NCBI RefSeq assembly: GCF_964213995.1
Contig: NC_135808.1
Span: 23,002,001 to 23,066,000 of the forward strand
Origin: Mustelus asterias
Lineage: Eukaryota
Length of the DNA: 64,000 nucleotides
Direction of reading: 5' to 3'
The position numbers and the translations under genes were made by a program. Under the pieces are notes generated by a model. It did no database searches, was not told the origin of the DNA, and saw nothing but the letters and a program-made list of their open reading frames with translations. Shown here piece by piece: positions 7,881 to 59,951 of the stretch (positions are counted from its first letter, which is position 1; each line of letters starts with the position of its first letter).

Positions 7881-7944
7881 ATGAGGGAAGCAGCAATGAT
7901 TGGACTGATAGAGCTGGTCCTTCTGTGTGGAGAGGTGTCTGCAG
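7881..7944 (+). CDS. Gene A exon 1, leader [21 protein letters not shown]
   Basis: ATG followed by a hydrophobic stretch and a CAG|GTGAGT donor; identical in all three paralogs. Confidence 0.85.
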
Positions 7945-13010: not shown

Positions 13011-13805
13011 GGTATGAACTGTGTTGATAAATATTGGGAGCTGATCCTTCTAACTGGGATATTCCCGCTGGATTTAGCTGTACAATCTGGTGGGTGGGCT
13101 GTGAGCTCAGTGTCTGTCTCTCACTCTATAGTCACTAAAGAGCAGCTCATCCAATCCAACACTGAGCTTTGAGACTGGCCTTCTGGAGACGGCTGTTCCT
13201 GTACAGTCTGAGGGTGGAGACATTGTGTGTTTTAACCTGTAGAGACATCCGGAAACATCTCACCCTGGACAGCCTCCTCTGAGCTGCTCAATTTCCTGAA
13301 GGAATTTGTAACTCCCAGACTTTTCCCTGAAGTTGGTCACTGAGCTGTGCCGCTCCCACAGGTTTTTATTTTAGTCGTGTTTTGTGATTTGTCTGATCAT
13401 TAGCTGGATGTTTGGGGTGTACAGTAGAGTTTAGGAGTTAAGCTGGTGATTGGTGGTCTGATGGGTTTAGCTGGTGTTTGGTGCTCTATTGGGTTTAGCT
13501 GGTGTTTGCGGCTCTGATGAGTTTAACTGATGTTAAGGAGTCTGATGGGTTTAGCTGGTGTTTGGGGATCTGATGGGTTTAGCTGGTGTTTGGGGGTCTG
13601 ATGGGTTTAACTGATGTTAAGGAGTCTGATGGGTTTAGCTGGTGTTTGGGGATCTGATGGGTTTAGCTGGTGTTTGGGGGTCTGATGGGTTTAACTGATG
13701 TTAAGGAGTCTGATGGGTTTTGCTGGTGTTTGGGTATCTGATGGGTTTTGCTGGTGTTTGGGGATCTGATGGGTTTTGCTGGTGTTTGGGGGTCTGATGG
13801 GTTTT

Positions 13806-15895
13806 AAGAAGAAAGAATAAAGAGCAATACAGCACAGGAACAGGCCCTTCGGCCCTCCAAGCCCGTGCCGCTCCCTGGTCCAAACTCGACCATTCTTTTC
13901 TATCCCTCCATTCCCACTCCGTTCATATGGCTATCTAGATAAGTCTTAAACATTCCCAGTGTGTCCGCCTCCACCACCTTGCCTGGCAGCGCATTCCAGG
14001 CCCCCACCACCCTCTGTGTAAAATATGTCCTTCTGATATCTGTGTTAAACCTCCCCCCCTGCCTTCACCTTGAACCTATAACCCCTCGTGAACGTCACCA
14101 CCGACCTGGGGAAAAGCTTCCCACCGTTCACCCTATCTATGCCTTTCATAATTTTATACACCTCTATTAAGTCTCCCCTCATCCTCCGTCTTTCCAGGGA
14201 GAACAACCCCAGTTTACCCAATCTCTCCTCATAACTAAGCCCCTCCATACCAGGCAACATCCTGGTAAACCTCCTCTGCAGGCTCTCCAAAGCCTCCACG
14301 TCCTTCTGGTAGTGTAGTGTGGCGACCAGAACGGGACGCAGTATTCCAAATGTGGCCGAACCAACGTTCTATACATCTGCAACATCAGACGCCAACTTTT
14401 ATACTCTATGCCCCGTCCTATAAAGGCAAGCATGCCATATGCCTTCTTCACCACCTTCTCCACCTGTGACGTCACCTTCAAGGATCTGTGGACTTGCACA
14501 CCCAGGTCCCTCTGCGTATCTACACCCTTTATGGTTCTGCCATTTATCGTATAGCTCCTCCCTACATTATTTCTACCAAAATGCGTCACTTCGCATTCAT
14601 CAGGATTGAACTCCATCTGCCATTTCTTGGCCCAAATTTCCAGCCTATCTATATCCTTCTGTTGCTTCTGACAATGCTCCTCACTATCTGCAAGTCCTGC
14701 CAACTTTGTGTCGTCCGCAAACTTACTGATCACCCCAGTTACACCTTCTTCCAGATCGTTTATATAAATCACAAACAGCAGAGGTCCCAATACAGAGCCC
14801 TGCCGAACACCACTAGTCACAGGCCTCCAGCCAGAAAAAGACCCTTCCACTACCACCCTCTGTCTTCTGTGACCAAGCCAGTTCTCCACCCATCTAGCCA
14901 CCGCCCCCTTTATCCCATGAGATCCAACCTTTTTCACCAGCCTATCATGAGGGATTTTTTAAAACGCTTTACTAAAGTCCATATAGACCACATCCACGGC
15001 CCTTCCCTCGTCAACCATTCTGGTCACTCCTTCAAAAAACTCCACCAGGTTAGTGAGGCATGACCTCCCTCTCACAAAACCATGCTGACTATCATTAATG
15101 AGTTTATTCCTTTCTAAATGCGCATACATACTATCTCTAAGAATCTTCTCCAACAACTTCCCCACCACGGACGTCAAGCTCACCGGCCTATAGTTACCCG
15201 AGTTATCCTTCCTACCCTTCTTAAATAATGGGACCACATTAGCTATCCTCCAATCCTCTGGGACCTCACCTGCGTCCAGTGACGAGACAAAGATTTTCGT
15301 CAGAGGCCCAGCGATTTCATCTCTTGTCTCCCTGAGCAGCCTTGGATAGATTCCATCAGGCCCTGGGGATTTGTCTGTCTTTATATTCTCCAACAAACCT
15401 CACACTTCCTCCCTTATAATGGAGATTTTCTCTAACGGTTCAACATTCCGCTCCGAGACACTCCCAGTCAACACATCCCTCTCCTTTGTGAATACCGACG
15501 CAAAGTATTCATTTAGGATCTCCCCTACTTCTTTGGGCTCCAAGCATAATTCCCCACTTTTGTCCCTGAGAGGTCCGATTTTTTTCCTGACAACCCTTTT
15601 GTTCCTAACGTATGAATAAAATGCCTTGGGATTCTCCTTAATCCTGTCTGCCAAGGACATTTCGTGACCCCTTTTTGCCCTTATAATTCCCCGTTTGAGT
15701 TCTTTCCTACTTTCTTTGTACTCCTCCAGAGCTCCCTCCGTTTTTAGCTACCTGGACCTAACATACGCCTCTCTTTTCTTTTTGACCAGTCCCTCAATTT
15801 CCCTGGTTATCCACGGTTCTCGAATCCTACCCTTCCTATCCTTTTTTACAGGCACATGCCTGTCCTGTAGCCCTAACAACTGTTCCTTAAAAGAC
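13806..15895 (-). mobile_element. CR1-type LINE, about 2.1 kb, relatively young
   Basis: KSPGPDGIYPR, NYRPVSLTS, QHGF, DFSKAF, QGSVLGPLLF and FADDTK motifs. Confidence 0.95.
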
Positions 15896-16325
15896 TGGTG
15901 TTTGGGGCTCCGATGGGTTTTGCTGGTGTTTGGGGGTCAGATGGATTTTGCTGGTGTTTGGGGTCTGATGGGATTGGCTGGTGTTTGGGGCTCTGATGGT
16001 TTTTGCTGGTGTTTGGAATTATGATGGGTTTAACTGGTGTTTGGGGCTCTGATGGGTTCAGCGGGTGTTTGGGGCTCTGATGGGTTTAGCTGGTGTTTGG
16101 GGCTCTGATGGGTTTAGCTGGTGTTTGGGGATCTGATGGGTTTTGCTGGTGTTTGGGGCTGTGATGGGTTTAGCTGGTGTTTGGGGCTCTGATGGGTTTA
16201 GCTGGTGTTTGGGGGTCTGATGGGTTTTGCTGGTGTTTGGGGCTCTTGTGCGTTTAGCTGGTGTTTTGGGGGTTTGATGGGTTTTGCTGGTGTTTGGGGG
16301 TCTGATGGGTTTTGCTGGTGTTTGT

Positions 16326-17242
16326 GGTCACAGAGTCATAGAGGTTTACAGCATGGAAACAGGCCCTTCGGTCCAACTTGTCCATGCAGCCCTTATATTT
16401 TTTTAAACACCCCGAAACTAATCCCAATTGCCCGCATTTGGCCCATATCCCTCTATGCGCATCGTACCCATGTAACTATCTAAATGCTTTTTAAAATATA
16501 AAATTGGACCCGCCTCTACTACTATCTCTGGCAGCTTGTTCCAGACACTCCCTATCCTCTGTGTGAAAAAATTGCACCTCCTGGACACTTTTATATCTCT
16601 CCCCTCTCACCTTAAACCTATGCCCTCGAGTTTTAGACTCCCCGACCTTTGGGAAAAGATATTGCCTCTCTACCTTGTCTATGCCCCTCATTATTTTATA
16701 GACCTCTATAAGGTCACCCCTTAGCCTCCTACACTCCAGAGAAAAAAGTCCCAGTCTATTCAGCCCCTCCTCATAACTCAATCCATCAAGTCCCGGTACC
16801 ATCCTAGTAAATCTTTTCGGCACTCTTTCTAGTTTAATAATATCCTTTCTATAATAGGGTCACCAGAATTGCATACAGCATTCCAAGTGTGGCCTTACCA
16901 ATTCCTTGTACAACTTCAACAAGACGTCCCAACTCCGTATTCAATGTTCTGACCAATGAAACCAAGCATGCCGAACGCCTTCTTCACCACTCTGTCCACC
17001 TGTGACTCCACTTTCAAGGAGCTATGAACATGTACCCCTAGATCTCTTTGTTCTGTAACTCTCCCCAATGCCCGACCATTAACTGAGTAACTGCTGCCCT
17101 GGTTCAATCTACCAAAATGCATCACCTCGCAGTTGTCTAAATTAAACTCCATCTGCCATTTGTCAGCCCACTGGCCCAATTGATCAAGATCCCGCTGCAA
17201 TTGGAGATAACCTTCCTCACTGTCCACCATGCCACCAATCTT
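16326..17242 (-). mobile_element. CR1-type LINE 3' fragment
   Basis: LQRDLDQLGQWADKWQMEFN; same family as 29560-30740. Confidence 0.9.
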
Positions 17243-18004
17243 GGTCTGATGGGTTTTGCTAGTGTTTGGGGTCTGCTGGGTTTAGCTGGTGTTTGGAGGT
17301 CTGATGGAATTTGCTGCTGGTGTGTGGTTGGAATGTTGAAGGATAGAATATTTATGACTGAGAGCGAGGCCATTCAGCCCATCATATCCCTTCCTGTTCA
17401 TGAAGAACTCTCCTGCTTAATCTCACCTCCTGTACTCGATCTGTAGCTCTGTCGATCACAGCTCTTCATATCGACGTCCAAGAATTGATTCAATGTGGTG
17501 AGAGTTTCTGCCTGTACCATCCTTTCAGACAGTGCTTCAGCTGTCGTCTGTCTGGTGTTGTTACAATTCTAGCAAAGCCATTCTGCTGTCTGTCTCAACT
17601 GATGAAAGAAAAGCATGTTATGTACCTTCTTTACCATGTAATTAACATGTCCTGAAAACTTTCCCAATCTGTGGACATGCACTCCTGGATCCCTCTGTTC
17701 CTCCACATTACTCATTATCCTCCCAGTTATTAGGGATTCCCTTTGCCTTGTTCATCCTCCCGAAATCCATCACGCCTCACTGCTCCGGACTGAATTCCAT
17801 TTTCCAATGTTCTTCCCAACTGCCCAGGCCATCTCTATCTTCCTGCAATCTGAAGCTTTCCTCTTCACTGACACCCACACAGATAATATTTGTACCTCTG
17901 TAAACTTCTTTATCATTCCTGCTGCATTTGAATCTAAATGATTCACATGAACTACAAAAAGTGAGGGTGTGAGTGCTGGGTTCTGTGGAACCCCCACTGG
18001 TAAC

Positions 18005-18140
18005 AAGAAGTCTTGTTTAGGTCTGAGAAGTCTCACAACATCAGGTTAACATCCAATTCGGAATCACGAGCTTTCGGAGAACTGCTCCTTCGTCAGATGA
18101 GTGATGGTCAGTCCAACGCCGGCATCTCCACATCATGGAC
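18005..18140. mobile_element. Short Penelope terminal-repeat remnant in inverted arrangement
   Basis: Minus-strand terminal sequence followed by plus-strand gtccaacgccggcatctccacatcat; empty site in the paralog at about 38810. Confidence 0.75.
18064..18100 (-). ncRNA. Minimal hammerhead ribozyme (Penelope remnant)
   Basis: Reverse strand reads tcat-CTGACGA-aggagcagttctcc-GAAA-gcTC-gtga; one stem II mismatch. Confidence 0.65.
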
Positions 18141-21100
18141 ATCATTCTAGTCGCAATCAACCCCTTACCCCTTTGCTTCCTGCCACTGAGCTAATTTGGG
18201 GTCTGATTTGTCAATGTCTCTTGGATCTCGATGAGTTTTACATTTCTGACCAGCCTGCCATGTGGGACCTTGTCCAAAGCATTATTAAAATGCATGTTGA
18301 CCTTGTCCACCTCACTGCCCTCATCAACCCTCCTTCTCACCTCTTCCAAATTTTCAGTCAGAAAGCTTGAGATGAGCTCCCCTTAAATCCACGCTAACTT
18401 TCCTCGACTAATCTGTGCCTTTCTCAATGAAGGTTTGTACCGTTCCTCATAATTGGTTCCAACAATGTTCCCACTGCCGAAGTTACACTAACTGGTGTAT
18501 AATTACTCAGATTGCCCCTTCTCTTTTCAATCCATGGTATAATGTTGGCAGTCATTTAATCTTCTTCCACACTCCTGCAGCCCGGGAGGAATGATTCTGA
18601 TGATCAGAGCCTCTGCAATTCCCTCCTTTGCTTCTTTTAACCCGGTGATTTACCATCTTTCAAAGTTATAAAATCCCTGAATACATCATCTCTTACAATG
18701 TTTATCTGATGCAGTAATTCACACACTTCTTCTTTAAGTGCAATGTCAGCATTGCTCCCTGTTTCCCAAAGACAGTGGCAATGTATTTATTCACAACCTC
18801 AACACGTTCTCCCTCCTCTCTCACAGACTATCTTATTGGTCTCCACCAGGCCTTACTCTTTCCTTATCCTTTTCTCTTCAGGGACTGATAGAACATCCTT
18901 GGAGGTTCCTTGATTTTTCTTGCCAGTATTTTGTCGTGCCCCCTCTCCTTTCCCAGTATTCCTCTCTCAGTATCTCTTCCAGGTTTCTGCATTATTAGGC
19001 GTGAGGGGTCTGATGGATTTTGCTGCTGTTTTTTGTGGAGGTCTGATGGGTTTTGTTGGGTGTGTTCCAGCTCTGCTGGCTTTGCCTCAGTTTTTCTTTC
19101 TCATCCCCAGTGCCCTCCAGTGCATTCCAGGGTTTGTAATCCAGGAACACCAGTTCCCAAGAACAGCAGCAGGAGAGGATGAGAGAATGAGGGAAGATGT
19201 GATTTCATCAAGGTGACAGCGACCGACTGATTCAAGCTCCACATTTGTGATTCCGTTTAAATGGAACTGTGATGATGGTTTGGAAGTAATTGCTATATCT
19301 GGAGCTGCACTTTCTGAGCTATTCCGATCTGAGCTGTTTGTTCTGCACAGACACAAGAGGGCGATCTTATGAAAAAAAATTCTCTGTCCAGAAAGAGCAT
19401 GAAAGCGGGAGAGTTTCTGACCCGTCTTTCAGGCGAATCCAAATCTACGATCTTATGCACTTGTTTCTCACCCTTGTAGGGGGGAGGGGGCAGGTCTTAA
19501 ATAACCAGAATGCTGCCTGAAAGCAGCAGAGGACACCATTGCGCATGTGCAGGTCCCTCTGCTCTGAGCGACAGAGAGACCTGTCACTCAGCCTCTGCTG
19601 CTTTCACCAGACCTCCATAGCCTAAACACGGACCTCCCCAGCTGCCTAATGCAACCCTTGATGGTCGGACCAATTGACCCCGCGACACCCTACATGCCCG
19701 GACAGACAAAACCGCGCCTCTGGGACAGATTGAACCCCGTGACCCCCCTCCCCCCCCCCAATTCGGACCAACTTTCCCTGTCCATCCCACCACCGATCGC
19801 AATGCAGTAGCCCCCGCTACTTCTCTCACTGATGGCAAATACTTAGTGGCAGTAGCCCCCCCACACCCCAAATTGCAAATGCATAGCGTGCAGCGCCCCG
19901 CCCCCCCCGCCCCCATCACAGGTTGGTCCCACCCCAGTAGAGCCCCCCTCCAAATAATCAGGCTCCACACCCTTCCCACTCCCACTGTCTGGTGGGCACT
20001 TCCAAGATACCAGGCTGGCACAGTCCGCAAGGCACTCCCCCCAACCTCTCGGGGTGGCTTCAATGGCATCTGGATCCACGAGCGAGGCATCAGGTCTGGT
20101 CCCTGTTGTGATTCTCGCTGGAGTGAACCTCTCCCGTGAGGCCACAGAGACGAGAGCCCAGATGATTGCGCCGCGGGCTCGCTCATTTTGTTCATAACAG
20201 GTTTTAAATGTACTCAAGTATTTGATTCAGCCTCGCGCCGCAATGTGTGAGAAATCGGGTGCGAATCTCATATGTATTGAACTCATGAATTCCAATATCT
20301 TCTGCCCTTTCCTGATTTTTTCTTTTAATGTCTGTTATTCATTAGTGAGTGTGTTTATGTCACATCCCCTCTTCCCAAGCACTCTGTCTGGGGAAATAAC
20401 AAACATCATTGAAATATCAGAGCCTTTGTATCAAACTGTCACCGCGATCTGACATTTGGAGCTGCAGATAAGTTTCCAATTCTTGTCACTGTTGGAAATA
20501 TAGTTACACTTTGCAATATTGGACACAATTGTTACCTGTGTGTGTGTGTTTTATTAAAACAACAGAAAAGGTTTATTCTGCTTGGAGCTGAATGGGTTAA
20601 TTCTAAATTAGAACACGTTCGGTGAAGAAATTCATTGTCACCGCGATTTTAAAAAGAGACTGGGTTACAATGTTCTCAGAGTAATGGCGGTTTCAGCAGA
20701 ACAAAGATATTTCTTCATGTCTTGTGGATTCACCATTTCAAACTGGATACTTCCGAATAAAAACCTTGGAGAAAAATGGATTAGAAGATAACGTGCCAAA
20801 TGTTCCCCAGGGTGATTTTTATGAAGATTTTAAACACAAGAATAATCCATGAGCAATCGCCTTAAATTCAGCTCCTGAATTTGAAGTTACACCATCAAAG
20901 CTTAAAAAAAACGACCCCACTCTGACAGATGTGAATTTGTATCTGGATTAGAAATCCCGCATGTTTCACCCGTTTCAACAGAGTTTCATTGTAGCGGCAA
21001 CAAGCTCCCAGTTTAAAAACTTTTAAACTGTTCTCCCCCTTTAGACCTAACCATTTTCAGGAAAAAACATCAGAGTTGGAGCTGGTCTGAAGGAACAGCA

Positions 21101-27804: not shown

Positions 27805-28067
27805 TTGCCCCCGTCGTGTCCTTTACCCGTCTGGGTGATTCTAACCGGCTGTCCTGTGCCGTCACTGGGTTTTACCCTCAAGCCATCGAGGTGAATCTGT
27901 GGAGAGATGGAGTGATGATTGCTGAGACTCTGTTTAGTGGGATCTTACCCAATGAAGACAGCACCTCCAGATCTGAAAATGGATCGAGTTTGATCCAGAG
28001 GACCAGGCCGAGTATTCCTGTCGGGTGGAACACAGCGGGATGAAGGAGACACTGGTGGTGATTTACG
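27805..28067 (+). pseudogene. Gene B alpha3 exon, frameshifted
   Basis: ACCT-CCAGATCTGA here versus ACCTACCAGATCCGG in gene A. Confidence 0.9.
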
Positions 28068-35559: not shown

Positions 35560-36280
35560 GTAGGAATTGGAGGGAAAAGAGCAGCTCCTTACTGGGGGGA
35601 GGGATTGTGGGAGAGTATTCCAGGGTGGGGGGGCTCAGGCTGTGGGTCTCAGGTTGGTGTGGGGGTCACAGAGTGGATGGAAGAGCCCAGGGTTGGGATA
35701 GGGAGGATAAGGGGCTCATGATAAAAGGGAAGAGTCTGAGAATTGTGGGAAGGGTCTCAGATTGAATGACGAGTTTAGGGTATCAGTGAGGGTCCCGGGT
35801 CAGTGCGGGAGTGAGGGTCTTCAGTCAGTGTGGGAGTGAGGGTCTTCAGTCAGTGCGAGAGTGAGGGTCCCCGGTCAGAGGGGAGTGAGGGTCCTGGGTC
35901 AGAGGGGGGAGTGAGGGTCCTAGGTCAGAGGCGGAGTGAGGGTCCCGGTGAAAGAGGGGGAAGTGAGGGTCCCAGGTCAGAAGAGGAATGAGGGTCCCGG
36001 GTCACAGGGGGAGTGAGGGTCCCGGTTCACTGTGGGAGTGAGGGTCCTGGTCAGGGTGAGAGTGAGGATTTCAGAATTGTGTTGTCGGGGCTCAGTACGA
36101 GCGAGAGTTCCAGCCTCTGTCTCTGATTTTCTCTCAGTCTCGTCACTCACTGAGCATTCCATGTTTTACAGGGAGAGGGAAGAGTGACTACAATCCTGCA
36201 AATAGTAAGCTGATCATCAAATATCGTCTCTGCGTAACTGTGTGAATCACCATTGATTCTGTGTCATATAGTGTGTGTGT

Positions 36281-36617
36281 NNNNNNNNNNNNNNNNNNNN
36301 NNNNNNNNNNNNNNNNNNNNNNNNNNNNNNNNNNNNNNNNNNNNNNNNNNNNNNNNNNNNNNNNNNNNNNNNNNNNNNNNNNNNNNNNNNNNNNNNNNNN
36401 NNNNNNNNNNNNNNNNNNNNNNNNNNNNNNNNNNNNNNNNNNNNNNNNNNNNNNNNNNNNNNNNNNNNNNNNNNNNNNNNNNNNNNNNNNNNNNNNNNNN
36501 NNNNNNNNNNNNNNNNNNNNNNNNNNNNNNNNNNNNNNNNNNNNNNNNNNNNNNNNNNNNNNNNNNNNNNNNNNNNNNNNNNNNNNNNNNNNNNNNNNNN
36601 NNNNNNNNNNNNNNNNN
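36281..36617. other. Assembly gap (N run) in gene B intron 6
   Basis: Run of n. Confidence 1.
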
Positions 36618-37384
36618 CCTCTCGGCCTCTCTCTCTCGCTCTCAGTCTGTCTGTATGACTCTTTCTCTGTATCTACCCGAACAGGCAGCTCGGGGATTTT
36701 CACAGTAATTTAATTGCAATGTTAATGTAAGCCTACTTGTGACACCAATAAATTAACTTATAATTATAAATTGCTTTCTCTTTCTCTCTTTTTCTCTCTC
36801 ACTCTTTCTCTCACTCTCCTTTCTCTCACTCTCTCTCTCCATCTTTATCTCTCCATATCTCATGCACTGATTCTGTCTGATGACAAACAGTATTTTTAAT
36901 GCCTCTCCTTCCTTTGACAGCTTCTGATAAAGGGGATTCCACAACCAGCTCCTCCACAGGTTCCTGAGATATGAATTCTGTTGATAAATATTGGGAGCTG
37001 ATCCTTCTACCTGGGATATTCCCGCTGGATTTAGCTGTACAATCTGGTGGGTGGGCTGTGAGCTCAGTGTCTGTCTCTCGCTGTATCGTCACTAAAGAGC
37101 AGCTCATCCAATCCAACACTGAGCTTTGAGACTGGCCTTCTGGAGACGGCTGCTTCTGTACAGTCTGAGGGTGGAGACATTGTGGGTGTTGAGGTGTCGA
37201 GACACCCGGAAACATCTCACCCTGGACAGCCTCCGCTAAGCTGCTCAATTTCCTTAGGAAGTCGGAATTCCCAAGAGTTTTCCCTGAAGTTGGTCACTGA
37301 GCTGTGTCACTCCCACAGGATTTAACATTTAACGTTTTGTGATGGGTTTGATCGTTTTCTGGATGTTTGGGAAGCGGAGTGAAT

Positions 37385-37795
37385 CTTAGGGGTTTAGCTG
37401 GTGTTTGGAGGTCTGATGGGTTTAGCTGGTGTTTGGGGCTCTGATGGGTTTAGCTGGAGTTTGGGGGTCTGATGGGTTTAGCTGGTGTTTGGGGCTCTGA
37501 TGGGTTTAGCCGGTGTTTGGGGATCTGATGGGTTTAGCTGTGTTTGGGGCTCTGATGGGTTTAGCTGGTGTTTGGGGTCTGATAGGTTTTGCTGGTGTTT
37601 GGGAGTCTGACGTGTTTTGCTGGTGTTGGGGCTCTGATGGGTTCAGCTGGTGTTTGGGGGTCTGATGGATTTTGCTGGTTTTTGGGGCTCTGATGGGTTT
37701 TGCTGGTGTTTGGGGGTCTGATGGGATTAGCTGGTGTTTGGGGGTCTGATGGGATTAGCTGGTGTTTGGAGCTCTGATGGGTTTAGCTAGTGTTG
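37385..37795. repeat. 27-28-bp minisatellite downstream of gene B
   Basis: ctgatgggtttagctggtgtttgggg units. Confidence 0.9.
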
Positions 37796-40639
37796 TGTGG
37801 GTGGAAAGTTGAATTTAATAAAATTTATGTTTGACAGCAAGCTCATTCAGCCCATCATGTCCCTGCCTGTTAATGAAGAGCTCTCCAGCCTAATCTCACC
37901 TTCCTGTACTCGGTCTGCAGCTCTGTAGATCACAGCTCTTCAACTCGACATCCAAGAATTGATTCAATGTGGTGAGAGTTTCTGCCTCTACCATCCTTTC
38001 AGACAGAGAGTCCCGGGTCCCTCCCACCATCTGGGTGAAAAACCCTTTCCTCATTTCCCACTGATCATTCTAACAATTACTTTAAACCTGTGTCCTCTGG
38101 TTTTTGATCCTCTGCTAAGGTAAATGTGTCATCTCTATTTACCATGGCTCCTCATAATTATATCCACTCCAATTAAATCTCCCCTCGGCCTCCTCTATTC
38201 TACAGAATCCTATTCCAGCCTATCCGCTCTTTCCTCACAGTGAACATTCTCCAGTCCTGTCCACATTAAACAATCTCCTCTGCATTCTCTCCAACACAAT
38301 CACATCTTTTGTGTAATGTGCTGACCAGACTGTCTGCAATGCTTCAGCTGTCGTCTATCTGGTGTTGTTTGCAGTTCCAGCAAAACTACTCTGTTCTGTG
38401 CCTTGGCTAATAAAGGAAGGCATGTAATATACCTTCTTAACTACATTATCAACCTGTCCTGACACCTTTCCCAATCTGTGGACACGCACTCCTGGGTCCC
38501 TCTGTTCCTCCACATTCGTCATTATCCTCCCATTTATTGGGGATTCCCTTTGTTTTGTTAATCCTCCTGAAATCCATCACCTCTCACTGCTCCGGATTGA
38601 ATTCCATTTTCCACTGTTCTTCCCAACTGCCCAGACCATCTCCATCTTCCTGCAACCTGAAGCTTTCCTCCTCATTGTCACCCATACGGACAATTTTTCT
38701 AAATCTCTAAACTTCTTCATCATTCTCTCTCCATTTAAATCTAAATCATTCACCTGAACCACAAAACGCGAGGGAGTGAGAGCTGGGCCCCATGGATCCC
38801 CCACTGGTAACATCATTCCAGTCGCAATAAGCCCCTTAACCCTTTGCTTCCTGCCACTGAGCTAATTTGGGCTCTGATTTGTCATTGTCTCTTGGATCTC
38901 AATGTGTTTTTATATTTCTGACCAGCCTGCCATGTGGGACCTTGTCTAAAACATTAAAATCTATGTTGACCACATCCACCTCACTGTCCTCATCAACCCA
39001 TCCTTCTCACCTCTTCCAAATTTTCAGTTAGTTTAGCCTGAGATAACTTTCCTTGATTAATCTGTGCGTTTCTAAATGAAGGTTTATGCTGTTCCTCACA
39101 ATTGATTTCAATAATGTTCCCACCACCGAAGTTACACTAACTGGTGTATAATTACTCAGATTGCCCCTTCTTCCCTTTTCAATCCATGGTGTGATATTGA
39201 CAGTCCTTTAATCTTCTTCCACACTCATGTAGCCCGGGAGGAATGATTCTGATGGTCAGAGCCTCTGCAATTTCCTCCCTTGTTTCTTTTAACCCGGTGA
39301 TTCACCATCTTTCAAAGTTGTAAAATCCATTAATATGTAATCTCTTATGCAGTAATTCACACACTTCTTCCTTCATTGCAATGTCAGCATTGCTCCATGT
39401 TTCCCAAAGACAGGGGCAATGTATTTATTCACAACCTCACCACATTCCCCACCCTCTCACATGCACTTCTTATTGGGCGCCACAAGGCCTTACTCTTTCC
39501 TTATCCTTTTCTCTACATGTGCATCCTTGGAGGTTCTTTGTTTTTTCTTGGCAGCATTTTTATGCCTTTCTTTACTTTCCTGGTTTCCCTTTCAATTTCA
39601 CCCCTACTCTCTCTGTACTCTTCCAGGTTTCTGCAGTATTAGGCATGAGGGGTCTGACGGATCTTGCTGCTGGTATTTGTGGGGGTCAAGTGGATCTGCT
39701 GGGTTTTGTTGGGGGGTGTTCCAGCTCTGCTGGGTTTGCCTCCCTCGATAGTGATGTATTTCTTTCTCATCCCCAGTGTTCTCCAGTGCCCCAGGGACAC
39801 CAGTCCCCAAGATCAGCAGCAGGAGTGGATGAGAGAATCAGGAAGGATGTGATTTCATCAAGATGATAGCGACTGACTCATTTAGACACTACATATGTGA
39901 CGCTGTGTAAATGGAACTGTGACGATGGTTTGTCAGGAATTACTCTATCTGGAGCTGCACTTCTTAAGCTATTCTGATCTGCACTTGAAAGGCTATTATG
40001 ATCTGCCCTGTTTCTACAGACTCTCGGAATCTGTCTGGTTCACTCACTGCCAACTCAGTCACCTGTTACTGCAGTCTGTAACATTGCTGCAATTTCTACA
40101 ATAAATGTGATTTAGTTTTTCACTTCCTGCCTCTGTAAAGTCTTCAGTACAAAACTATCAATGGGGTAGGGTAACACCACTGCAATGGGGAACATTTTAA
40201 GACTTTTAAGAACAATTTACCAAAAATGCACATCAAGAGGAATTAATAGCAATAAATTAGCAGTAAACACATATTTTAAAAGGGAAGATGGTGCTTGTCA
40301 AAGCTCCGAGTATTCGTTGAGATGGTAACAGACATGGTGATGGGAAAATGTGATAGATATACTTATATGGACTTTAGAAAAAAGTTACCACATGGGGGTT
40401 TATTAGTTAAGATTAAACGAATACTTTGCACATCTCTTCAGCTGGATCACAATGTTCTTTTCCCATTCCAGCCTCTCATTCCAGATTAAGACCTGGAAGA
40501 TGCAGGAAGGTGACAACAAGTAACTTTCGTGGTCCTGTCCAGTTCCACCTCCCCAATCAGTAATTCCTGATTTTAATAACCCACCACACATCCAGGTGCG
40601 TGACACATGTCCATTACGTCCAGGTGGAGTTTGGGCTGT

Positions 40640-44163: not shown

Positions 44164-44580
44164 CCCGGCAACTGATGATGTTAGAATCATAGAATGAGCC
44201 CATTCAAGTCAGCACCAAATCTCAGACAGAGCATCTTTACCCAGGCCCCATCCCTGTTACCCTACATATTTACCATGGCTAATCCCCTATCACACACATC
44301 TTTAGACAGTAAGGGGCAATTTAGCTTGGCCTGTCCATCTAACCTGCACATCTTTGGCGTGCAGGAGGAAGCAGGAGTACCAGGAGGATACCCACACAGG
44401 GAGAATGTACAAACTCCACACAGACAGTCACCCAAGGCTGAAATTGACCCTGGGTCCCTGGCGCTGTGAGGCAGCAGTGCTAACCACTGAGCAAACATAA
44501 TATAACCAGTTGTATTTACCTGATTGGAGAATTCTGAATATTGAGGAAGTTTGCCAACCTGTTTTGTGTCTAATCAGATT
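44164..44580 (+). promoter_or_regulatory. Disrupted promoter modules of gene C
   Basis: Distal X (44164-44177) is separated from Y (44520-44527) by a SINE; the proximal X-Y is deleted at about 44565. Confidence 0.65.
44184..44498 (-). mobile_element. tRNA-derived SINE inserted in the gene C promoter
   Basis: Reverse of cagtggttagcactgctgcctcacagcgccagggaccc; absent at the homologous gene B site. Confidence 0.85.
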
Positions 44581-44672: not shown

Positions 44673-47600
44673 ATGAGGGAAGCAGCAATGATTGGACTGA
44701 TAGAGCTGGTCCTTCTGTGTGGAGAGGTGTCTGCAGGTGAGTGATGGGGTGTGAGAGGGGCAATGCCAGGCTGGGTACTGGGGCATTAACCCTGGGTCAG
44801 TGAGTGATGGGGTGCGAGAGGGGCAATGTCAAGCTCGGTGGAGCTCTTGCTCTCAGTTTAGAATTCACATTTTGGGATTCATACCCTGGTGTTTCACTAT
44901 GTGTGACAGTGGGTGTTTTGGGGTTCATGGCTTGATGTCTCTCTCTGTGGTGTTGATATTTTGGGTTTGTACCTCAATTTCTGTGTGTGTGTGTGTGTAT
45001 GTATGTTTTGGTGTTTGGGGGTTCACACCCTGATGTCTCTCTCTCTGGGTGTTGGTGTTTTGGGGTTCACACCCTGATGTCTCTCTCTCTCTGGGTGTTG
45101 GTGTTTTGGGGTTCACACCCTGATGTTTCTCTCTCTCTCTGGGTGTTGGTGTTTTGTGTTTCTTACCCTGAGGTCTCTCTCTCTCTGGGTGTCGGTAGGG
45201 TTCATACCCTGATGTATCTCTCTCTGTGGGTTGACGTGCCTTCAAGGAAGGTTTTTATATCATGTTTCTTGTGAAGGGAATGTTTTAAACTCAGCACTGA
45301 GCACCGTGCTGATTTGTTTGCAACCTGCAGTCTACCTGATGAGAACGCAGTAGCATAATTAATCCTAGATAATGGGTTGTTTTGTTTATCGTCTGGGTTG
45401 TCCCCTGGGGTTTCAGAGTCGGGTTTGATTCGATTGATTTACAAGAGGAAGTCATCTGCTAATGGAAGAAGCTATTCTTACAGAGAAACAAAGCAGGCAG
45501 TTATCTGCTTCGGTCTGTCATCAGCAAGAAGTGTTATTCTCTCTCACTCTCTCTCTTTTAGGATTATAGTTTGGGACCTGTTTGAAAATAGGTCTCTCTC
45601 CATATTTGTTCTGGGGCTTAAGGACTAGCAGTCGCTGACCAGCACATAAGCCTGTTGTTTGCTAACTGATGTTAAAGATGAGTTTACGTCTCTGAGGAAT
45701 ATTGCTTAAATTGGGACTAATACAGATAGACAAGCAGCAAAGAATTTGATCTTGTCTTGTTTCAGTATTTAAGTTGGTAAGATATACATCAATTCTTTTT
45801 GTTCTTGTTTAAACTGTTTTGTTCATTTTTTTAAAGCTTCCCATTGGGTCAATAGAATCACAGCTGGAGTGATTCACTTCATCCTCACACTCATGCCAAA
45901 ATAAAAATAAAAATGTGGGTCTAGTCTAACTTCATAATATAACTTGGAGTTTGAGGTCTGGTCCCTAAAAAAATTTAGGGAGTGACCGAGATCAGAGTTG
46001 AGAATTCCTTGTTCAGCTTAGGATTACTGAACTCAAAGTCAGTGAGTGTTGAGTTTTTGTGTGTTCTCTTGAGGTGAATGCCGTATGGAATAAATGGTTC
46101 TTTTACTGGCTGAGGTTTTCCTGGGTGTGGAAGAAGTGACTCAGGATGGTTTACAAAAAGTGGATAAAGCAAAACTTCTGGCATTGCCAAACAAGTTGCA
46201 GCTTTCAGTGATAGCTCGGCACTTAAAATTGCCAGAAACATTGGAATTGGCTTGAATTCAACTCCAAATCTCACAGCTTGAATTAGAGGCAAAGGAAAGA
46301 AAACACAATTGAAACTGTTGAAATTGCAATTAAAAGCAAATGAAAAAGAGTTGAGATAGTTTGAATTGTAATTTAAGGAAAAAGAAAGCGAGAGAGAATA
46401 GCCCTGGCAGAGCAAAACAAAGGGAAAAAGAATTAGAACTTCAGGAAGTGAAAAGGCAATTTGAACTTGAAATGTCTGAAAGGCAAATGTGTAAAACTGC
46501 GCGTGTATCAGGAAAAGGACAGATGATTTTGAATCAGTTTGTGAATCATATGTTGGCTTTCAACATCAGTTTCAGCCTGTGAGAGACAGAGAAATCCTCA
46601 GGTGGTAAAGGAGATGCCATTGGAGATCGTAAAGATAGTTTCCCTCAGGTAAATTCTTTCCACTAACTGAACTTCAACTTCTTTATCTTTACTTTGTGAT
46701 TTCCCCTCCTGGCCAACCTGTGGCTTTGTAAACTTGTTATCCCGCAGTCAGGAAAAAAACCCCAGGATATGCTTCCTGCATCACCTCAGCTGTCTGATTT
46801 TCCACTGGCTTTTCAACCACAGTAACCATCACTCCCACCTGTGATCCAGCTTTATCATTACCCAGGATAAACTGTATTCCTGGAAAAGATCATTTCCCTA
46901 TCACTCCAACCCCCACCACCACTTTCGCCAGAATCTCCAACCTTACACTTTATAATGGAACACTACTCTTTTCACAAGTAATTTCACTTATTTCCACATT
47001 TTTCCGGCAATACTCCTTCCAAACTACATATCTCCTCATCTTTCACCATCAAAGATTGACTTGATCCTGTACCTTTTAAAATCTGAGCTTCTTTACCTCC
47101 TCCTCCTGGTACACATAAGTAAACCTTACCCACATAAGTAAATTATTTAAAACGACTAAGCACTTGCTTATCAACCAATCCCTGACCAGGCTGGACACTT
47201 TTTCACCTGTTCAGCTTCAACTATGGTTTCCTTTATCAGTTAACAGACCCCAGATGGTTGAGCAAGAACATAAACTGTTGGAGGATGGAGGTCACTATTT
47301 TTAGTTCAGAAAGTTGTCAGAATTACAGCAGAAGGATATCGAAATAAAGCAATTGTATCAGAAAGCATATACAGAAGAAGAATCTGAGTGTATACCAGAG
47401 TGATACTACATTACAAATGATGAATTGATGAGATGCTGGAGATCATTACATATTCAGGCAGATGCATCAAAGTTATTCCGGGAAGTTGTGGATAGCTTAG
47501 GAGTAAAGCAATTTAAATCAACTCTGTACCATCCAGAATCGCAGGGAATATTGAAACGCGAGCGTCAAATTTTAAAGGCCATGTTGAGGACCTCCAGGCA

Positions 47601-52519: not shown

Positions 52520-55500
52520 ACTAATAGTGTGAAACTTGAAGTTATGAAAAATGAAGCCATTTTTTATTGCTGTTTTTTTTAAGGGGGAGGTGTGAGGATA
52601 CTGTGCCTTTAAGAAATGTATCTATATCATGTTTCTTGTGAAGGGATTGTTTTCAACTTCAGCTCTGATTACAGTGCCGATTTGCCCACAAACAGCAGCC
52701 CACATGCTGAGAGTGCAGAAGCATAATTTATCCCAGATAATGTTTCTTTTTGCTTTTATCTGAGCTGTTTTGTTTATTTTTTTGGGTTGTCCCTGGGGTT
52801 TCAGAGTAAGGTTTAATTCGGTTGATTGACAAGAGGAAGTTATATGCTGATGGGAAGAGCTAAGCTTACAGGAAGACAAGCAGACAGTTGTCTGCCTGGA
52901 CCTGCCAGAAGCATTATTCTCTCTCTCTTTCTCTAAAGACTGTAGTTTGGGACCTGCTCGAAAATAGGTCTCTCTCCAGAGGTGTTTTGGAGGCTGGAGA
53001 TACCCAGCTCAGATACCCACATGTAAGGCTGTTTGCTGACTGATTTTCAGGAGGTGTTTATGTCTATGAGGAATATTGCTTAAATTGGAACAATTAGAAA
53101 TAATCCAGCAGTTAAGAGTTGTATCTTGTCACATGTAAGAATTTCAGTTGGTAAAAGTTGAGGCTATTTCTTTTTGTTATAGTTAAACTGTACTGTTAAA
53201 TAAAGTTTGTTTTGACAAAAGCTTCCTAGTGGGTCATTGGAATGACACCTCGAGTGAAACACTTTATCCTCACACGAATGTCAAAGTCAAAAAAGAGAGT
53301 TGGGGTCTGGTCTAAATTCATAACATGGAGTTTCTAATCTGGTGCCCAACGGTGGATGCTGGTGTTTTGTGTTCATACCTTGATCTCTCTCTGTTTTTCA
53401 GGTTCTCACTCTCTCCGGATTTCCGTCACGGGAATGACTCCGATCCCGGGTTTCCCGGAGTTTGTGCTTGTCGGTTATGTGGATGATCTCCGGGTTGTTG
53501 TGTACGACAGCGATCGGAAGGAGCTGATCCCCCAGGAGCAGAGGATGGTGGAGATCGACGGACATGAGGCTTGGGAACAGAAGAAGATTCTCGCACAAGA
53601 GCTGGGGATGATTGTCAAATTGTCTTTTCCGGTCTTCATTTCTCTGTCCCAGCAGACAGGAAGTGAGTCCTCACTTTCCCACCACTCGGGGGTGCAGGTG
53701 GGAAGAAACCAAGAATGGATCAGGAACTGGGAGCCAGAGGCTGATTGGCTACGATTGGATATGTGACAGCAAATTTGATTGGCGATCAATGAGTGGAGGG
53801 AATGTATCCAAGAGAGACTGGCTCGGATTGGCTGTGTGTGGAGGACATGAGATCCACTTAGTGTAACTGCCGCTGATTGGCTTTCTATGTGGTGGGAGGT
53901 GCCTCGCTTGATTTGATTGGCTTTTGATAGAGTGGGTCTGGCTTCTGAGTGGAACTGGCTTGGATTGGCTGTGGGGGTGGTATCTCACATTGGGACTGAC
54001 TCTAATTGGCTGTTTGTGATCCACAGGAATCCATGTTTTACAGATGATGACTGGCTGCAATCTGAGGGATGATGGGACCACGAGTGCATTCAACCGGATT
54101 GGGTGGAATGGACAGGATGTGCTCAGCTTCGACAAGGATCACATGGTGTGGGTGACCCCAGTGACCTGGGGAGAGATCATCAAAAACAATCTTGACAGGG
54201 ATACTGCCCAGAATGAGCGATTCAAACAATTACTGGAGGTGGACTGTATTGAGTGGCTGAGGAAATCCCTCGAGTTCGGACAGAGTGAACTGACAGCTGG
54301 TGAGTGAGGGGGGAGCGAGAATTGGTGAGTGATGGGGGGAGCGAGAGTCGGTGAGTGAGGGGGGGAGTGAGAGTCGGTGAGTGAGGGGGGAGTGAGAGTC
54401 GGTGAGTGAGGGGGGAGCGAGAGTCGGTGAGTGAGGGGGGGAGCGAGAGTCGGTGAGTGAGGGGGAGCGAGAGTCGGTGAGTGAGGGGGGAGCGAGAGTT
54501 GGTGAGTGAGGGGGGAGCGAGAGTCGGTGAGTGAGGAGGGAGCGGGAATCAGTGGGTCAGGGTGAGTGAGGGGGGAGTGAGTGGGAATCAGTGGGTGAGG
54601 TGGGAGTGAGTGGGAATCGGTGGGTGAGTGAGAGGGGGGTGGGAATCAGTGGGTGAGGGGGACTGAGTCATTGAGTGACGCGTGACAGATAGAGAGAAAG
54701 GTAGAAAACACCGAGTGCATTTTGCAGAAAGCTGGAGGGAGATACTTATTTTCTATCAGCTCCCAGACTGCAATTTCCAGACAGAGAAAGGGAGAGAGAA
54801 AGAGCTGCTCCTTCGTTTTTCAAATTGAAACAGCAACTGCCTGCCTGTCCCTCTGTAACCCAAACTGCTCCCATTGACATGATTTCATTCTTGCCAATCA
54901 ACCTAATTACACCCGACTCTGAAACACCAGGAGAAAACCACAACATTTCACAAAACTGCATTAGCTCAGATTAAAACAAACACCCCAATACTTAGGACCA
55001 ATTACTCTTCCGCATTATGTTGTGAAGTTTATGTTTTTAAAATGATAACACAATTGTAACAATTGGAGTTTTCTAAACAGCATTCCATTGGAATCGTGCT
55101 TTATTCGGTTTGTTAATTGTTTTGTTAACCTGATTGCTGTTAGTTAGATAAATAAAGTGTTACTTGTTGCTTTACAGAGGGAATCTCAGGTAGTTATTTT
55201 GATTTGACCACTAAAAGTTGCTGAAGAGCAGATATTAACCCTTCTCACACACACTTTAACAGATTATGAAGGGACGTAATGCTCTTTCAGTGGCTGAGTA
55301 TCAGTTCTCAGAGAGGAAATCAACTTCCACTTCGTAACAATTATCAGCATGTGGGCTGCTGCAGTAATCAGAGTTGACATATAAAACAGTCCCTTTAGAA
55401 GAAATGCAAATACATTCCTTAAAAGCACAGTTCTGACACAGGGGACTTAGAGTGAGTGAGGGAGGGAGGGAGTGAGATTCGGTGAGTGAAGGAGGTGAGA

Positions 55501-58500
55501 GAGCCGGTGAGTGAGGGGGGGGAGTGAGAGTTGGTGAGAGAGGGGGGAGCGAGAGTCGGTGAGTGAGAGGGGAGTGAGAGTCGGTGAGTGAGCGGGAGTG
55601 AGAGTCGGTGAGTGAGGGGGGAGTGAGAGTCGGTGAGTGAGGGGGGAGTGAGAGTCGGTGAGTGGGGAGGGGAGTGGGACTCTCACTCCCGCTCACTCAC
55701 CGACTCTCACTCCTCCCTAACTCACCCACTCTCACTCCCCCCTCACTCAACGACTCTCACTCCCCCCTCACTCACCGACTCTCACTCCCCCCTCTCTCAC
55801 CGACTCTCACTCCCCCCCCTCACTCACCGGCTCTCTCGCCTCCTTCACTCACTGAATCTCACTTCCTCCCTCCCTCACTCACTCTAAGTCCCCTGTGTCA
55901 GAACTGTGCTTTTAAGCAATGTATTTGCATTTCTTCTAAAGGGACTGTTTTATGTGTCAACTCTGATTACTGAGGGGAGGAGTGAGCATCGGTGAGTGAG
56001 GGGGGAGTGAGAGTCGGTGAGCGAGGGGGGAGTGAGAGTCGGTGAGCGAGGGGGGAGTGAGAGTCGGTGAGTGAGGGGGGAGTGAGAGTCGGTGAGTGAG
56101 GGGGGGAGTGAGAGTCGGTGAGAGAGGGTGGAGTGAGCGTCGGTGAGTGAGGGGGGAGTGAGAGTCGGTGAGTGAGGGTGGAGTGAGAGTCGGTGAGCGA
56201 GGGGGGAGTGAGAGTCGGTGAGTGAGGGGGGAGTGAGAGTCGGTGAGTGAGGGGGGAGTGAGAGTCGGTGAGTGAGGGGGGGAGTAAGAGTCAGTGAGTG
56301 AGGGGGGTAGTGAGAGTCGGTGAGAGAGGGTGGAGTGAGAGTCGGTGAGTGAGGGGGGAGTGAGAGTCGGTGAGTGAGGGGGGGAGTGAGAGTCGGTGAG
56401 AGAGGGTGGAGTGAGAGTCGGTGAGTGAGGGGGAATGAGAGTCGGTGAGTGAGGGGGGAGTGGGTGTCGGAGGGTGAGGGGGGAGTGAGAGTCGGTGAGT
56501 GAGGGGGGAGTGAGAGTCGGTGAGTGAGCGGGGAGTGAGAGTCGGTGAGTGAAGGGGGAGGGAGGGTCGGTGAGTGAGGGGGGAGTGAGAGTTGGTGAGT
56601 GAGGGGTGGAGTGAGAGTTCGTGATTGAGGGGGGAGTGAGAGTCGGTGAGTGAGGGGGAACTGAGTCGTTGTGCGAATGTGAGTGAGGGGGGAGTGGGAG
56701 TCGGTGAGTGAGGGGGAACTGAGTCGTTGTGCGAATGTGAGTGAGGGGGGAGTGAGAGTCGGTTAGTGAGGGGGGAGTAGGAATCAGTGGGTGAGGGAGG
56801 AGTGAGTGGGAATCGGTGAGTGAGGGGGGAGTGAGAGTCGGTGAGTGAGGAGGGAGTGAGAGTCGGTGAGTGAGGCGGGAGTGAAAGTCGGTGAGTGAGG
56901 CAGGAGTGAGATTCGGTGAGGGTGGAGGTATTGGGAATCAGTGGGTGAGTGAGGAGTGAGTGGGAATCGGTGAGTGAGGGGGGAGTGAGAGTCGGTGAAT
57001 GAGGGGGGAGTGAGAGTCGGTGAGTGAGGGGGGAGTGAGAGTCGGTGAGTGAGGGGGAATGAGAGTCGGTGAGTGAGGGGGGAGTGGGAGTCGGAGGGTG
57101 AGGGGGAGTGAGAGTCGGTGACTGAGGGGGGAGTGAGAGTCGGTGAGTGAGGGGGGAGTGAGAGTCGGTGAGTGAGCGGGGAGTGAGAGTCGGTGAGTGA
57201 AGGGGGAGGGAGGGTCGGTGAGTGAGGGGGAAGTGAGAGTCGGTGAGTGAGGGGCGGAGTGAGAGTTGGTGATTGAGGGCGGAGTGGGAGTCGGTGAGTG
57301 AGGGGGGAGTGAGAGTCGGTGAGTGAGGGGGAACTGAGTCGTCGTGCGAATGTGAGTGAGGGGGGAGTGAGAGTCGGTGAGTGAGGGGGGAGTGAGAGTC
57401 GGTGAGTGAGGGGGGAGTGAGAGTCGGTGAGTGAGGAGTGAATGAGAATCGGTTAGTGAGGTGGGAGTAGGAATCAGTGGGTGAGGGAGGAGTGAGTGGG
57501 AATCGGTGAGTGAGGGGGGAGTGAGAGTCGGTGAGTGAGGAGGGAGTGAGTGTCGGTGAGTGAGGCGGGAGTGAGATTCGGTGAGGGTGGAGGTAGTGGG
57601 AATCAGTGGGTGAGGGGGGAGCGAGAGTGGGTGAGTGAGGGGGGAGCGAGAGTGGGTGAGTGAGGGGGGAGCGAGAGTTGGTGAGTGAGGAGGGAGCGAG
57701 AGTCGGTGAGTGAGGAGGGAGCGGGAATCAGTGGGTCAGGGTGAGTGAGGGGGGAGTGAGTGGGAATCAGTGGGTGAGGTGGGAGTGAGTGGGAATCGGT
57801 GGGTGAGTGAGAGGGGGGTGGGAATCAGTGGGTGAGGGGGACTGAGTCATTGAGTGACGCGTGACAGATAGAGAGAAAGGTAGAAAACACCGAGTGCATT
57901 TTGCAGAAAGCTGGAGGGAGATACTTATTTTCTATCAGCTTCCAGACTGCAATTTCCAGACAGAGAAAGGGAGAGAGAAAAGAGCTGCTCCTTCCTTTTT
58001 CAAATTGAAACAGCAACTGCCTGCCTGTCCCTCTGTAACCCAAACTGCTCCCATTGACATGATTTCCTTCTTGCCAATCAACCTAATTACACCCGACTCT
58101 GAAACACCAGGAGAAAACCACAACATTTCCCAAAACTGCATTCGCTGAGTTTAAAACAAACACCCCAATAATTAGGAGCAATGATTCTTCCGCATTATAT
58201 TGTGAAGTTTATGTTTTTAAAATGATAACACAATTGTAAAAATGCTCGGAGCAGAAGGCATTGCATGGGCTGTTTAAAAAAAGGTTTTTATTTCTGTACT
58301 GAAGAGTAGGCTGTACACTGCTGTACACTGTACATTGTATCATGAGCCTGGGCAGTAACTTTAAACAATCAGTTTAAATTAGGGATTTGAATAGCAGCAG
58401 CCTCTCAGATTTGAATTTGATGTTTTGATAAATAGTGGTAAACCAATCCTATTGTGGGGATTTTTGATATGTCATCAGGGGTATAAAAGCCACACTCCTG

Positions 58501-59951
58501 CCTCTGCCAGCAAATGCATCTGCCACGGTTTACAGCTTGAGAGAGAGAGGGAGAGAGAGACAGACAGCAACTGTCTCTAACAGAGTGACAGCCACATTTA
58601 TGTCTTAAAAGAAAGCCTCATCTCAAGCGTAAAGGTACAAACGGAAGTTAGTGGAAACAGAAGATAAAGACAGAGCATTCCGGAAGATGACAAAACTGGT
58701 TAAAATTTTGAGAGTGACTAGAAATTCAAATTGTTTTGTAAAAAATGGGAATTGGATTTATCTAAAGAGCATTCCATTGGAATCGTGCTTTATTCGGTTT
58801 GTTAATTGTTTAGTTAACCTGATTGCTGTTAGTTAGATAAATATTGTGTTACTTGTTGCTTTACAGAGGGAATCTCAGGTAGTTATTTTGATTTGATCAC
58901 TAAAAGTTGCTGAAGTGCAGATATTAAACCTTCTCACACACATTTTAACAGATTATGAAGGGACGTAATGCTCTTTCAGTGGCTGAGTATCAGTTCTCAG
59001 AGAGGAGATCAACTTCCACTTCGTAACAATCATCAGCATGTGGGTTGCTGCAGTCATCAGAGTTGACATATAAAACAGTCCCTTTAGAAGAAATACAAAT
59101 ACATTCCTTAAAGGCACAGTTCTGACACGGGACTTAGAGTGAGTGAGGGAGGGAAGGAGGGAGAGTCGGTGAGTGAGGGGGGAGTGAGAGTGGGTGAGTG
59201 AGGGGGGAGTGAGGGGGGCGTGAGAGTCGGTGAGTGAGGGGGGCGTGGGAGTCGGTGAGTGAGGGCGCGTGAGAGTCGGTGAGTGAGGGGGGAGTGAGAG
59301 TCGGTGAGTGAGGGGGGAGTGAGAGTCAGTGAGTGAGGGGGGAGTGAGAGTCGTGAGTGAGGGGGGAGTGAGAGTCGTTGAGTGAGGGGTGAGTGAGAGT
59401 GGGTGAGTGAGAGTGGGTGAGTGAGGGAGGAGTGAGAGTCTTTGAGTGAGGGGGGAGTGAGAGTCTTTGAGTGAGGGGGGAGTGAGAGTCGGTGAGTGAG
59501 GGGGGAGTGAGAGTCGGTGAGTGAGGGGGGAGTGAGAGTCGGTGAGTGAGGGGGGAGTGAGAGTGGGTGTGTGAGCGGGGAGTGAGAGTCGGTGAGTGAG
59601 TGGGGGAGTGAGAGTCGGTGAAGGGGGTGATGCCGGGACCCTCCATCTCGAGGTTCCTGTACTGACTCCTCTTTCTTTCTCTCTCAGTTGCCCCGATCGT
59701 GTCCTTTACCCGTCTGGGTGATTCTAACCAGCTGTCCTGTGCCGTCACTGGGTTTTACCCTCAAGCCATCGAGGTGAATCTGTGGAGAGATGAAGTGGTG
59801 ATTGATGAGACTCTGTCCAGTGGGATCTTACCCAATCACGACAGCACCTATCAGATCCGGAAATGGGCAGAGTTTGATCCAGAGGACCAGGCCGAGTATT
59901 CCTGTCGGGTGGAACACAGCGGGATGAATGAGACACTGGTGGTGATTTACG
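44673..59951 (+). CDS. Non-classical MHC class I gene C, 3'-partial; exons 44673-44736, 53402-53662, 54027-54299, 59688-59951
   Basis: Four open exons of the expected lengths (64/261/273/264) with GT-AG sites; no TM exon found before the window end. Confidence 0.88.
45225..53351 (+). mobile_element. Gmr1-like Gypsy LTR retrotransposon (decayed) in gene C intron 1; LTRs about 45225-45969 and 52591-53351
   Basis: Two diverged direct LTRs, PPT aagggggagg at 52581-52590, integrase YHPESQG (about 47520) upstream of [11 protein letters not shown] (about 51410) and RNase H YTDHNPL (about 52230). Confidence 0.85.
48290..50775 (-). mobile_element. Nested LINEs: a CR1 (about 49258-50472) inside another CR1/L2-group LINE
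   Basis: FADDCTIF and ALDIKATF in the outer element; [11 protein letters not shown] and FTDDTK in the inner. Confidence 0.8.
53402..53662 (+). CDS. Gene C alpha1 exon
   Basis: [11 protein letters not shown]...[21 protein letters not shown]. Confidence 0.92.
54027..54299 (+). CDS. Gene C alpha2 exon
   Basis: [11 protein letters not shown]...[13 protein letters not shown]. Confidence 0.92.
54300..59622. repeat. Expanded 25-bp minisatellite in gene C intron 3, containing duplicated nested solo LTRs and an inversion
   Basis: Arrays at 54300-54660, 55450-57840 and 59135-59622; block 54650-55470 is duplicated at 57830-59160. Confidence 0.9.
58198..59028 (+). mobile_element. Solo LTR (family B) nested in a minus-strand LTR related to the intron-1 element; internally deleted copy at 55018-55339, fragment at about 32630-33023
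   Basis: TG...CA with ATTA target duplication in the 55018-55339 copy; TATA-like and AATAAA signals. Confidence 0.75.
59688..59951 (+). CDS. Gene C alpha3 exon
   Basis: About 90% aa identical to gene A alpha3 (9 differences in 88 by hand count). Confidence 0.93.

Follow-up and report, generated by a model that had tools for sequence, protein, structure and literature searches.

The question raised by this locus is what a class I molecule may present once its groove has lost the residues that anchor the ends of a peptide. The window analysed here, 64,000 nucleotides of Mustelus asterias DNA, holds the alpha1 and alpha2 exons of gene C, a nonclassical MHC class I gene of the UBA lineage, for which a first-pass annotation had proposed convergence on CD1-like lipid binding. 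The reading favoured below, at a probability of about one half, is that gene C belongs to a young branch of three UBA genes which has likely switched from peptide to a candidate single-chain lipid or lipopeptide ligand, in the manner of chicken YF1 and not of CD1, and that gene C is perhaps the most eroded copy of that branch.

Gene C is read on the forward strand, and residue numbering throughout follows HLA-A2. The leader exon (44673..44736, with an intact ATG and a GT donor) lies 8.7 kb 5' of the alpha1 exon (53402..53662), followed by alpha2 (54027..54299) and a UBA-type alpha3 with both cysteines and an NET sequon (59688..59951). Intron 4 begins at 59952, is still open at 64000 and continues beyond the window end to a transmembrane (TM) exon, which the first-pass annotation had left to be found downstream and which was located 3.1 kb past the window (G000:C8:23069105-23069209, equivalent to L001:3105-3209). 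The four frames (leader, alpha1, alpha2, alpha3) are open with canonical splice sites, and the cysteine pairs, including C101 and C164 of alpha2, are present, as had been claimed. The donor of the TM exon is GC, not GT, and read-through of it gives, in all four copies of the gene, a short basic tail with a stop eight codons on. A secreted or membrane-anchorless product was ruled out by the presence of the TM exon in all four gene C copies. Within the introns, the stretch at window 54300-54980 is repeated at about 57500-58150, and an inverted duplication of a purine-rich minisatellite and its flank occupies window 55450-55900, between alpha2 and alpha3.

The four copies of gene C encode identical alpha1-alpha3 protein and sit in a ~410-kb block which also copies genes A and B and is repeated four times at C8 22.58-24.75 Mb, the longest aligned blocks being 97.8-99.9% alike. 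Four copies exceed two haplotypes, but the fourfold block may partly represent haplotype duplication in the assembly. Copy number as a signal of selection was ruled out, as the whole block is copied, including the broken gene B, whose alpha3 exon (window 27805-28067) lacks a single base and is thrown out of frame. As control serves gene A (window 7881-13010), an ordinary UBA gene that is complete, retains the two cytoplasmic exons and has D84, W146 and C147. The gene C protein corresponds to an NCBI model from Mustelus asterias by database label, and the NCBI models seen for gene C have another N-terminus or start at an internal Met. Models of the branch (P0005, P0019-P0021, P0004, P0006) either have no leader or borrow one from a remnant near window 52050 that resembles a retroelement; others have a different last exon or are fused to an upstream gene.

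Phylogenetically, gene C nests among Mustelus asterias UBA genes (support 99/95, 36 proteins), and in the same tree it falls within a 26-row clade (100/99) that takes in the UBA sequences of nurse shark and horn shark and leaves out the UAA-type proteins. All 67 alpha2 matches found genome-wide are on C8, most of them at 21.6-24.8 Mb, a UBA cluster of ~3 Mb. PMC10751288 gives c4 and rxrb as the genes flanking the elasmobranch UBA cluster and lists UBA among lineages of unknown function. According to PMC12562908, the UBA family descends from UAA and has expanded, while the shark genes likened to CD1 are UFA and UGA. Nurse shark UBA (AAC60347, matched by eye to P0040 and labelled UBA in the PMC10751288 supplement) is 60% identical to gene C over 305 residues and shares with it a UBA-type alpha3, a multicopy cluster, I143 and the absence of Y59; gene C differs in the loss of Y7, R84, Y159, Y171, N86, both cytoplasmic exons and the promoter module, and in a groove that is far more apolar. 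Elsewhere on C8, other class I lineages (L054, L055, L061-L064) comprise a UDA-like gene, a separate UGA-like locus (L055) and four UCA-like genes, three of which are without the alpha2 cysteine pair; these labels were assigned by eye against the PMC10751288 supplement. In one UBA subgroup (L030-L035), the F-pocket residues 95 and 147 are cysteines.

Two paralogs, P2 (21.88 Mb) and P3 (24.36 Mb), cluster with gene C at a bootstrap of 100. The three jointly depart from every one of the 21 other intact UBA copies at 23 of 176 sites, among them Y7I, F33V, R84L, N86Q, Y159L and Y171S/F. Branch members in other species were absent from the 15, 38 and 40 matches listed in three protein-level comparisons. 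The UBA lineage is an established one, and gene C is represented by automatic NCBI models; for the C/P2/P3 branch no published description was found in the literature outside subscription journals, though UBA subgroups of this sort may already figure in the primary UDA/UEA papers or their supplementary material. An alpha2 exon 90% like that of gene C, with two stops and C164Y, lies at L006:7795-8064 and again at C8 22.72, 23.54 and 24.75 Mb; no alpha1 or alpha3 was found near L006:7795-8064, and this alpha2-only remnant is a dead branch relative present in each block copy.

The groove residues reported at first pass (I7, A59, L84, I143, N146, L147, L159 and S171, and in the alpha1 helix L66, L70, I73, V74, V80, F81 and L84) are all present, and the description of the groove as anchor-less holds: none of the eight peptide-terminus anchors (Y7, Y59, R84, T143, K146, W147, Y159, Y171) remains in gene C, while shark UAA (6LUP, P0048) has all eight, a count that places gene C outside classical MHC-Ia. 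Four of the eight changes are ordinary among the 21 other UBA copies, as Y59 is absent from 21/21 and I143, N146 and L147 occur in 16/21, 4/21 and 8/21; I7, L84, L159 and S/F171 are found only in the branch. The branch has I7, A59, L84, Q86 and the apolar helix of alpha1 in common, and P2 keeps K146. Private to gene C are S8, R32, Q48 and R51 in alpha1, and R115, I116 and S171 in alpha2.

The groove is not "fully hydrophobic", as had been stated. Of 38 inward positions, chosen on the model of HLA-A2, 28 are apolar, three charged and six polar, plus G26, and the polar or charged residues left are K63, R155, D163, S77, T99, N114, N146, Q152 and S171. Mean Kyte-Doolittle hydropathy over these positions is nevertheless 1.78 in C, 1.82 in P2 and 1.57 in P3, against -0.13 to 0.97 in the 21 other intact UBA copies of the same genome, and gene C ranks first among 36 shark and ray class I proteins. 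The summed side-chain volume, a crude proxy, is the smallest of 26 sequences and thus gives no sign of a filled groove.

Very hydrophobic peptides are presented by Qa-1/HLA-E and H2-M3, and gene C might similarly present fragments of signal peptides or membrane proteins, loaded without the peptide-loading complex. Its classical-type scaffold, 50% identical to shark UAA 6LUP, would suit such a role, as would a diversified groove in which W167, K63 and some polar floor residues are kept. However, peptide-binding nonclassical molecules generally keep several terminus-binding residues, and the loss of all eight in gene C makes this reading very unlikely.

The structure predicted for P0020, one of the NCBI models of the branch, has the MHC-I fold (mean pLDDT 76.4, pTM 0.57), and its best Foldseek match is shark UAA 6LUP; chicken CD1, classical MHC-I and UGA score alike, at a fold-search Z of about 20. 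Because the chains superpose poorly over their full length (rmsd about 7-8, against 2.3-2.4 for alpha1-alpha2 alone) and the control, gene A, scores lower (pLDDT 68.0), the models say nothing on groove shape. L45 of gene C aligns to Lys43 of MR1, a residue with a role in the MR1 groove, and this lysine is therefore absent. Membership in CD1, UFA, UGA or MR1 was ruled out by the nesting within UBA, by the missing MR1 lysine and by identities to CD1, UFA and UGA chains of 21-31%, as compared to 50% to UAA.

Shark UFA and UGA (PDB 8GM8, 9CH4; PMC12562908) and CD1 do share with gene C an apolar groove devoid of peptide anchors. UFA and UGA are described there as single- or low-copy lineages, unlike the multicopy, UBA-derived gene C, which has no tail motif and is 25% and 31% identical to them, respectively. 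A closer functional analogue is chicken MHC-Y YF1*7.1 (PDB 3P73), with its hydrophobic groove, classical-type scaffold and multicopy nonclassical cluster; according to PMC2998441 and PMC12212280, its ligands, carried on a scaffold of the classical kind, are lipids and N-myristoylated peptides. YF1 is not orthologous to gene C (31% identity). As described for YF1, Tyr7 is kept at the myristate pocket, where gene C has I7, and the narrow groove (about 1,030 cubic angstroms) and the lipid or lipopeptide ligand are documented for YF1 only. The apolar share of the groove lining is 28/38 in gene C and 16/30 in YF1, counted on different site lists. Within UBA itself, zebra shark P0015 also has an apolar groove (1.31; L59, L84, L147, F159). 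It groups with carpet-shark UBAs (99/96) and, unlike gene C, keeps N86, Y171 and the tail, and its apolar shift is, judging from the tree and these residues, likely independent.

The loss of the N86 sequon noted at first pass stands, as gene C reads SQQT at 85-88. The site is missing in all of C, P2 and P3, is present in 21/21 other UBA copies and occurs in 34/36 aligned proteins, which makes its loss unusual. The glycan at N86 is needed for the heavy chain to engage calreticulin and the peptide-loading complex. The NET sequon of alpha3 is likewise present, as the sole sequon of the protein, but it can hardly be described as a relocated glycan: of 46 exactly matched alpha3 exons it occurs in six (C in its four copies, P3, and a further copy in which N86 is kept), it is absent from P2, and the catshark UBAs P0013 and P0031 carry NET and N86 together. 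A compensatory relocation is consequently a weak proposition on these patterns and is not established.

A second loss concerns the tail. The alignment beyond the TM exon skips both cytoplasmic exons (from 12552 to 18320 of gene A and from 36067 to 38989 of gene B), the downstream sequence of C, P2 and P3, followed for 67, 48 and 53 kb, respectively, yielded no cytoplasmic exon, and of the 40 genome matches to the first cytoplasmic exon that were scored, out of 42 candidates, none lies behind any of the three. In CD1b-d, a cytoplasmic tyrosine motif drives endosomal recycling. The conserved tail tyrosine of UBA sits in the deleted exons, and the branch thus lacks the tyrosine motif of CD1b-d. 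For this reason a CD1-like mechanism for gene C is doubtful and YF1 is the closer analogue.

A third loss affects the promoter. At 44549..44577 on the forward strand, the promoter alignment reveals a deletion junction: ~67 bp of genes A and B, containing TGACTCA and CTGATTGG, have no counterpart here. Exactly six such junctions exist in the genome, in the four C copies, P2 and P3, while the intact module occurs exactly 29 times, always in the UBA cluster. From the consensus, we take the two motifs to be X2/Y-box-like and the deleted module to be X1-X2-Y. The X1-X2-Y module is described as serving constitutive MHC-I expression (PMC7922096).

Rates were obtained as pairwise and private-difference counts over the 26 sequences kept; copies with gaps, stops or frameshifts were set aside, as were distant lineages and some near-duplicates. 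Among C, P2 and P3 the flanks diverge by 3.0-3.8%, while the non-synonymous divergence of groove sites is 14/91, 23/92 and 20/92 (15-25%), that is, 5-7 times faster than the flanks (binomial p 9e-7 to 5e-13) and well above the 2.6-4.3% of non-groove sites (Fisher p 4e-4 to 2e-8); when the exon synonymous rate is the sole yardstick, the groove excess falls short of significance (p about 0.08). Ordinary UBA pairs also have a groove pN/pS of 2.3, above 1, and fast groove evolution is therefore a trait of the UBA family. Apolarity is kept in 11/15 changes within the branch versus 54% expected, which is not significant (p 0.11). No stop or frameshift is found in 967 coding bases of the three lineages, for which the neutral chance is 0.004-0.025, a range that includes a halved figure as the indel rate taken from the flanks is perhaps too high. 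The P3 lineage has 10 groove changes and the C lineage 5, where 1.7 are expected for each (p 0.03 for C), and these lineage-specific changes postdate the deletions shared by the branch.

Outside the groove, gene C has eight private changes where 5.7 are expected under neutrality and 2.7 under the family constraint (p 0.006 versus the latter), and six of the eight fall at sites at least 90% conserved in the other copies. W51R, F171S, F8S, Q32R and R48Q are found in gene C alone within the branch. As described in PMC8236899, W51 and Y171 belong to one conserved cluster (V28-W51-Y171), struck here by W51R and F171S, and positions 32, 48 and 115 contribute to the contact with beta2m, 115 tolerating R; Q32R and R48Q thus strike interface positions. 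The caution voiced at first pass that W51R and F33V could mark early decay is borne out for W51R, which is private to gene C; F33V was ruled out as a sign of decay, being common to C, P2 and P3.

Run X1 (organism A) is guessed to be a likely RNA run, as its joints fall on exact exon borders, although no listed run is recorded as RNA. It contains branch-type contigs, ~90-94% like gene C, spliced from leader to alpha1, alpha1 to alpha2 and alpha2 to alpha3. Spliced branch transcripts are hence likely present, but a transcript with the private residues of gene C is not seen among the X1 contigs listed, which carry F8, Q32, R48 and W51; at positions 32, 48 and 51 all the X1 contig depth listed has the residues of P2/P3. 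One spliced branch contig has C164F and another is without one codon. Past the TM donor X1 has no cover, and there it counts neither for nor against. An unspliced contig of run X2 (organism B) combines Q48 and R51 with F8 and Q32, and because of this mixture gene C appears polymorphic.

These erosive features may instead mean that the promoter, tail and glycan losses are steps of pseudogenisation which followed groove diversification, with gene C a copy of little or no function, multiplied because it rides along in a segmental duplication of ~410 kb. Framework changes at the neutral rate, W51R together with F171S, C164F and the codon deletion in expressed relatives, the frameshifted gene B carried by the same block, and the broken alpha2-only relatives in the cluster are all consistent with a dying branch, as are the three losses themselves; the fusions and the different or missing leaders in the NCBI models of C, P2 and P3 may further suggest little transcript support. 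Frames that stay open in three lineages, groove excesses on the P3 and C lineages that are later than the shared deletions, and spliced branch transcripts in X1 speak against this, and decay is considered rather unlikely, though a serious contender. Gene C is nevertheless a poorer candidate than P2 or P3 for the predicted lipid-type presentation.

Four of the eight private non-groove changes (8, 32, 48, 115) face beta2m, positions 32, 48 and 115 as given in PMC8236899 and position 8 at the pleat ridge described there. This, with a loss of glycan and tail that fits independence from peptide loading, would suit a ligand-free or beta2m-loosened receptor ligand of the MIC, HFE or ZAG kind, in which apolar residues close the groove and a receptor or pathogen protein shapes the helices. 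Yet the groove side-chain volume is lower, not higher, R115 is within the ancestral Q/R state, alpha3 is an unchanged UBA-type domain, and the C-type contig of run X2 keeps F8 and Q32, all of which render this quite improbable.

What stands of the CD1-like proposal is thus a shift at the level of the branch toward a hydrophobic, non-peptide ligand, suggested by the outlying hydropathy, the fast groove, the open frames and the spliced relatives; CD1 ancestry is not supported, given the nesting in UBA and the separate UGA-like locus on the same contig. In the branch, the remaining peptide-end anchors Y7, R84, Y159 and Y171 have given way mostly to apolar residues. Under the favoured reading of a YF1-like switch, a heavy chain without N86 would escape calreticulin and the peptide-loading complex. 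An apolar ligand would be picked up in the endoplasmic reticulum, outside that complex, with K63, R155, D163, N114 and Q152 as possible contacts for a polar head group. Without a tail tyrosine the molecule would stay at the surface, with no endosomal recycling as in CD1b-d, and the promoter deletion would uncouple the branch from regulation common to the other UBA genes. Such a working would resemble that of YF1*7.1, by independent origin. A more specific scenario, put forward tentatively, is that a lipid or lipopeptide branch is caught here as it arises: a peptide-type UBA ancestor may have shed anchors, loading glycan, tail and promoter module together, after which the groove would have diversified under positive selection. 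Under this scenario gene C might be heading toward independence from beta2m and, with the zebra shark case added, UBA would repeatedly yield YF1-like lipid presenters beside the CD1-like UFA and UGA.

If decay is the true course, the locus is an ordinary case of birth and death in a large MHC-Ib cluster. If the favoured reading is true, the branch could give a ligand class to a UBA gene. Ideas on how peptide presenters turn into lipid presenters draw mostly on lineages that are old and saturated with change, CD1 being one; the C/P2/P3 branch has countable changes, three natural variants and ordinary sister genes as controls, which would make the switch directly testable.
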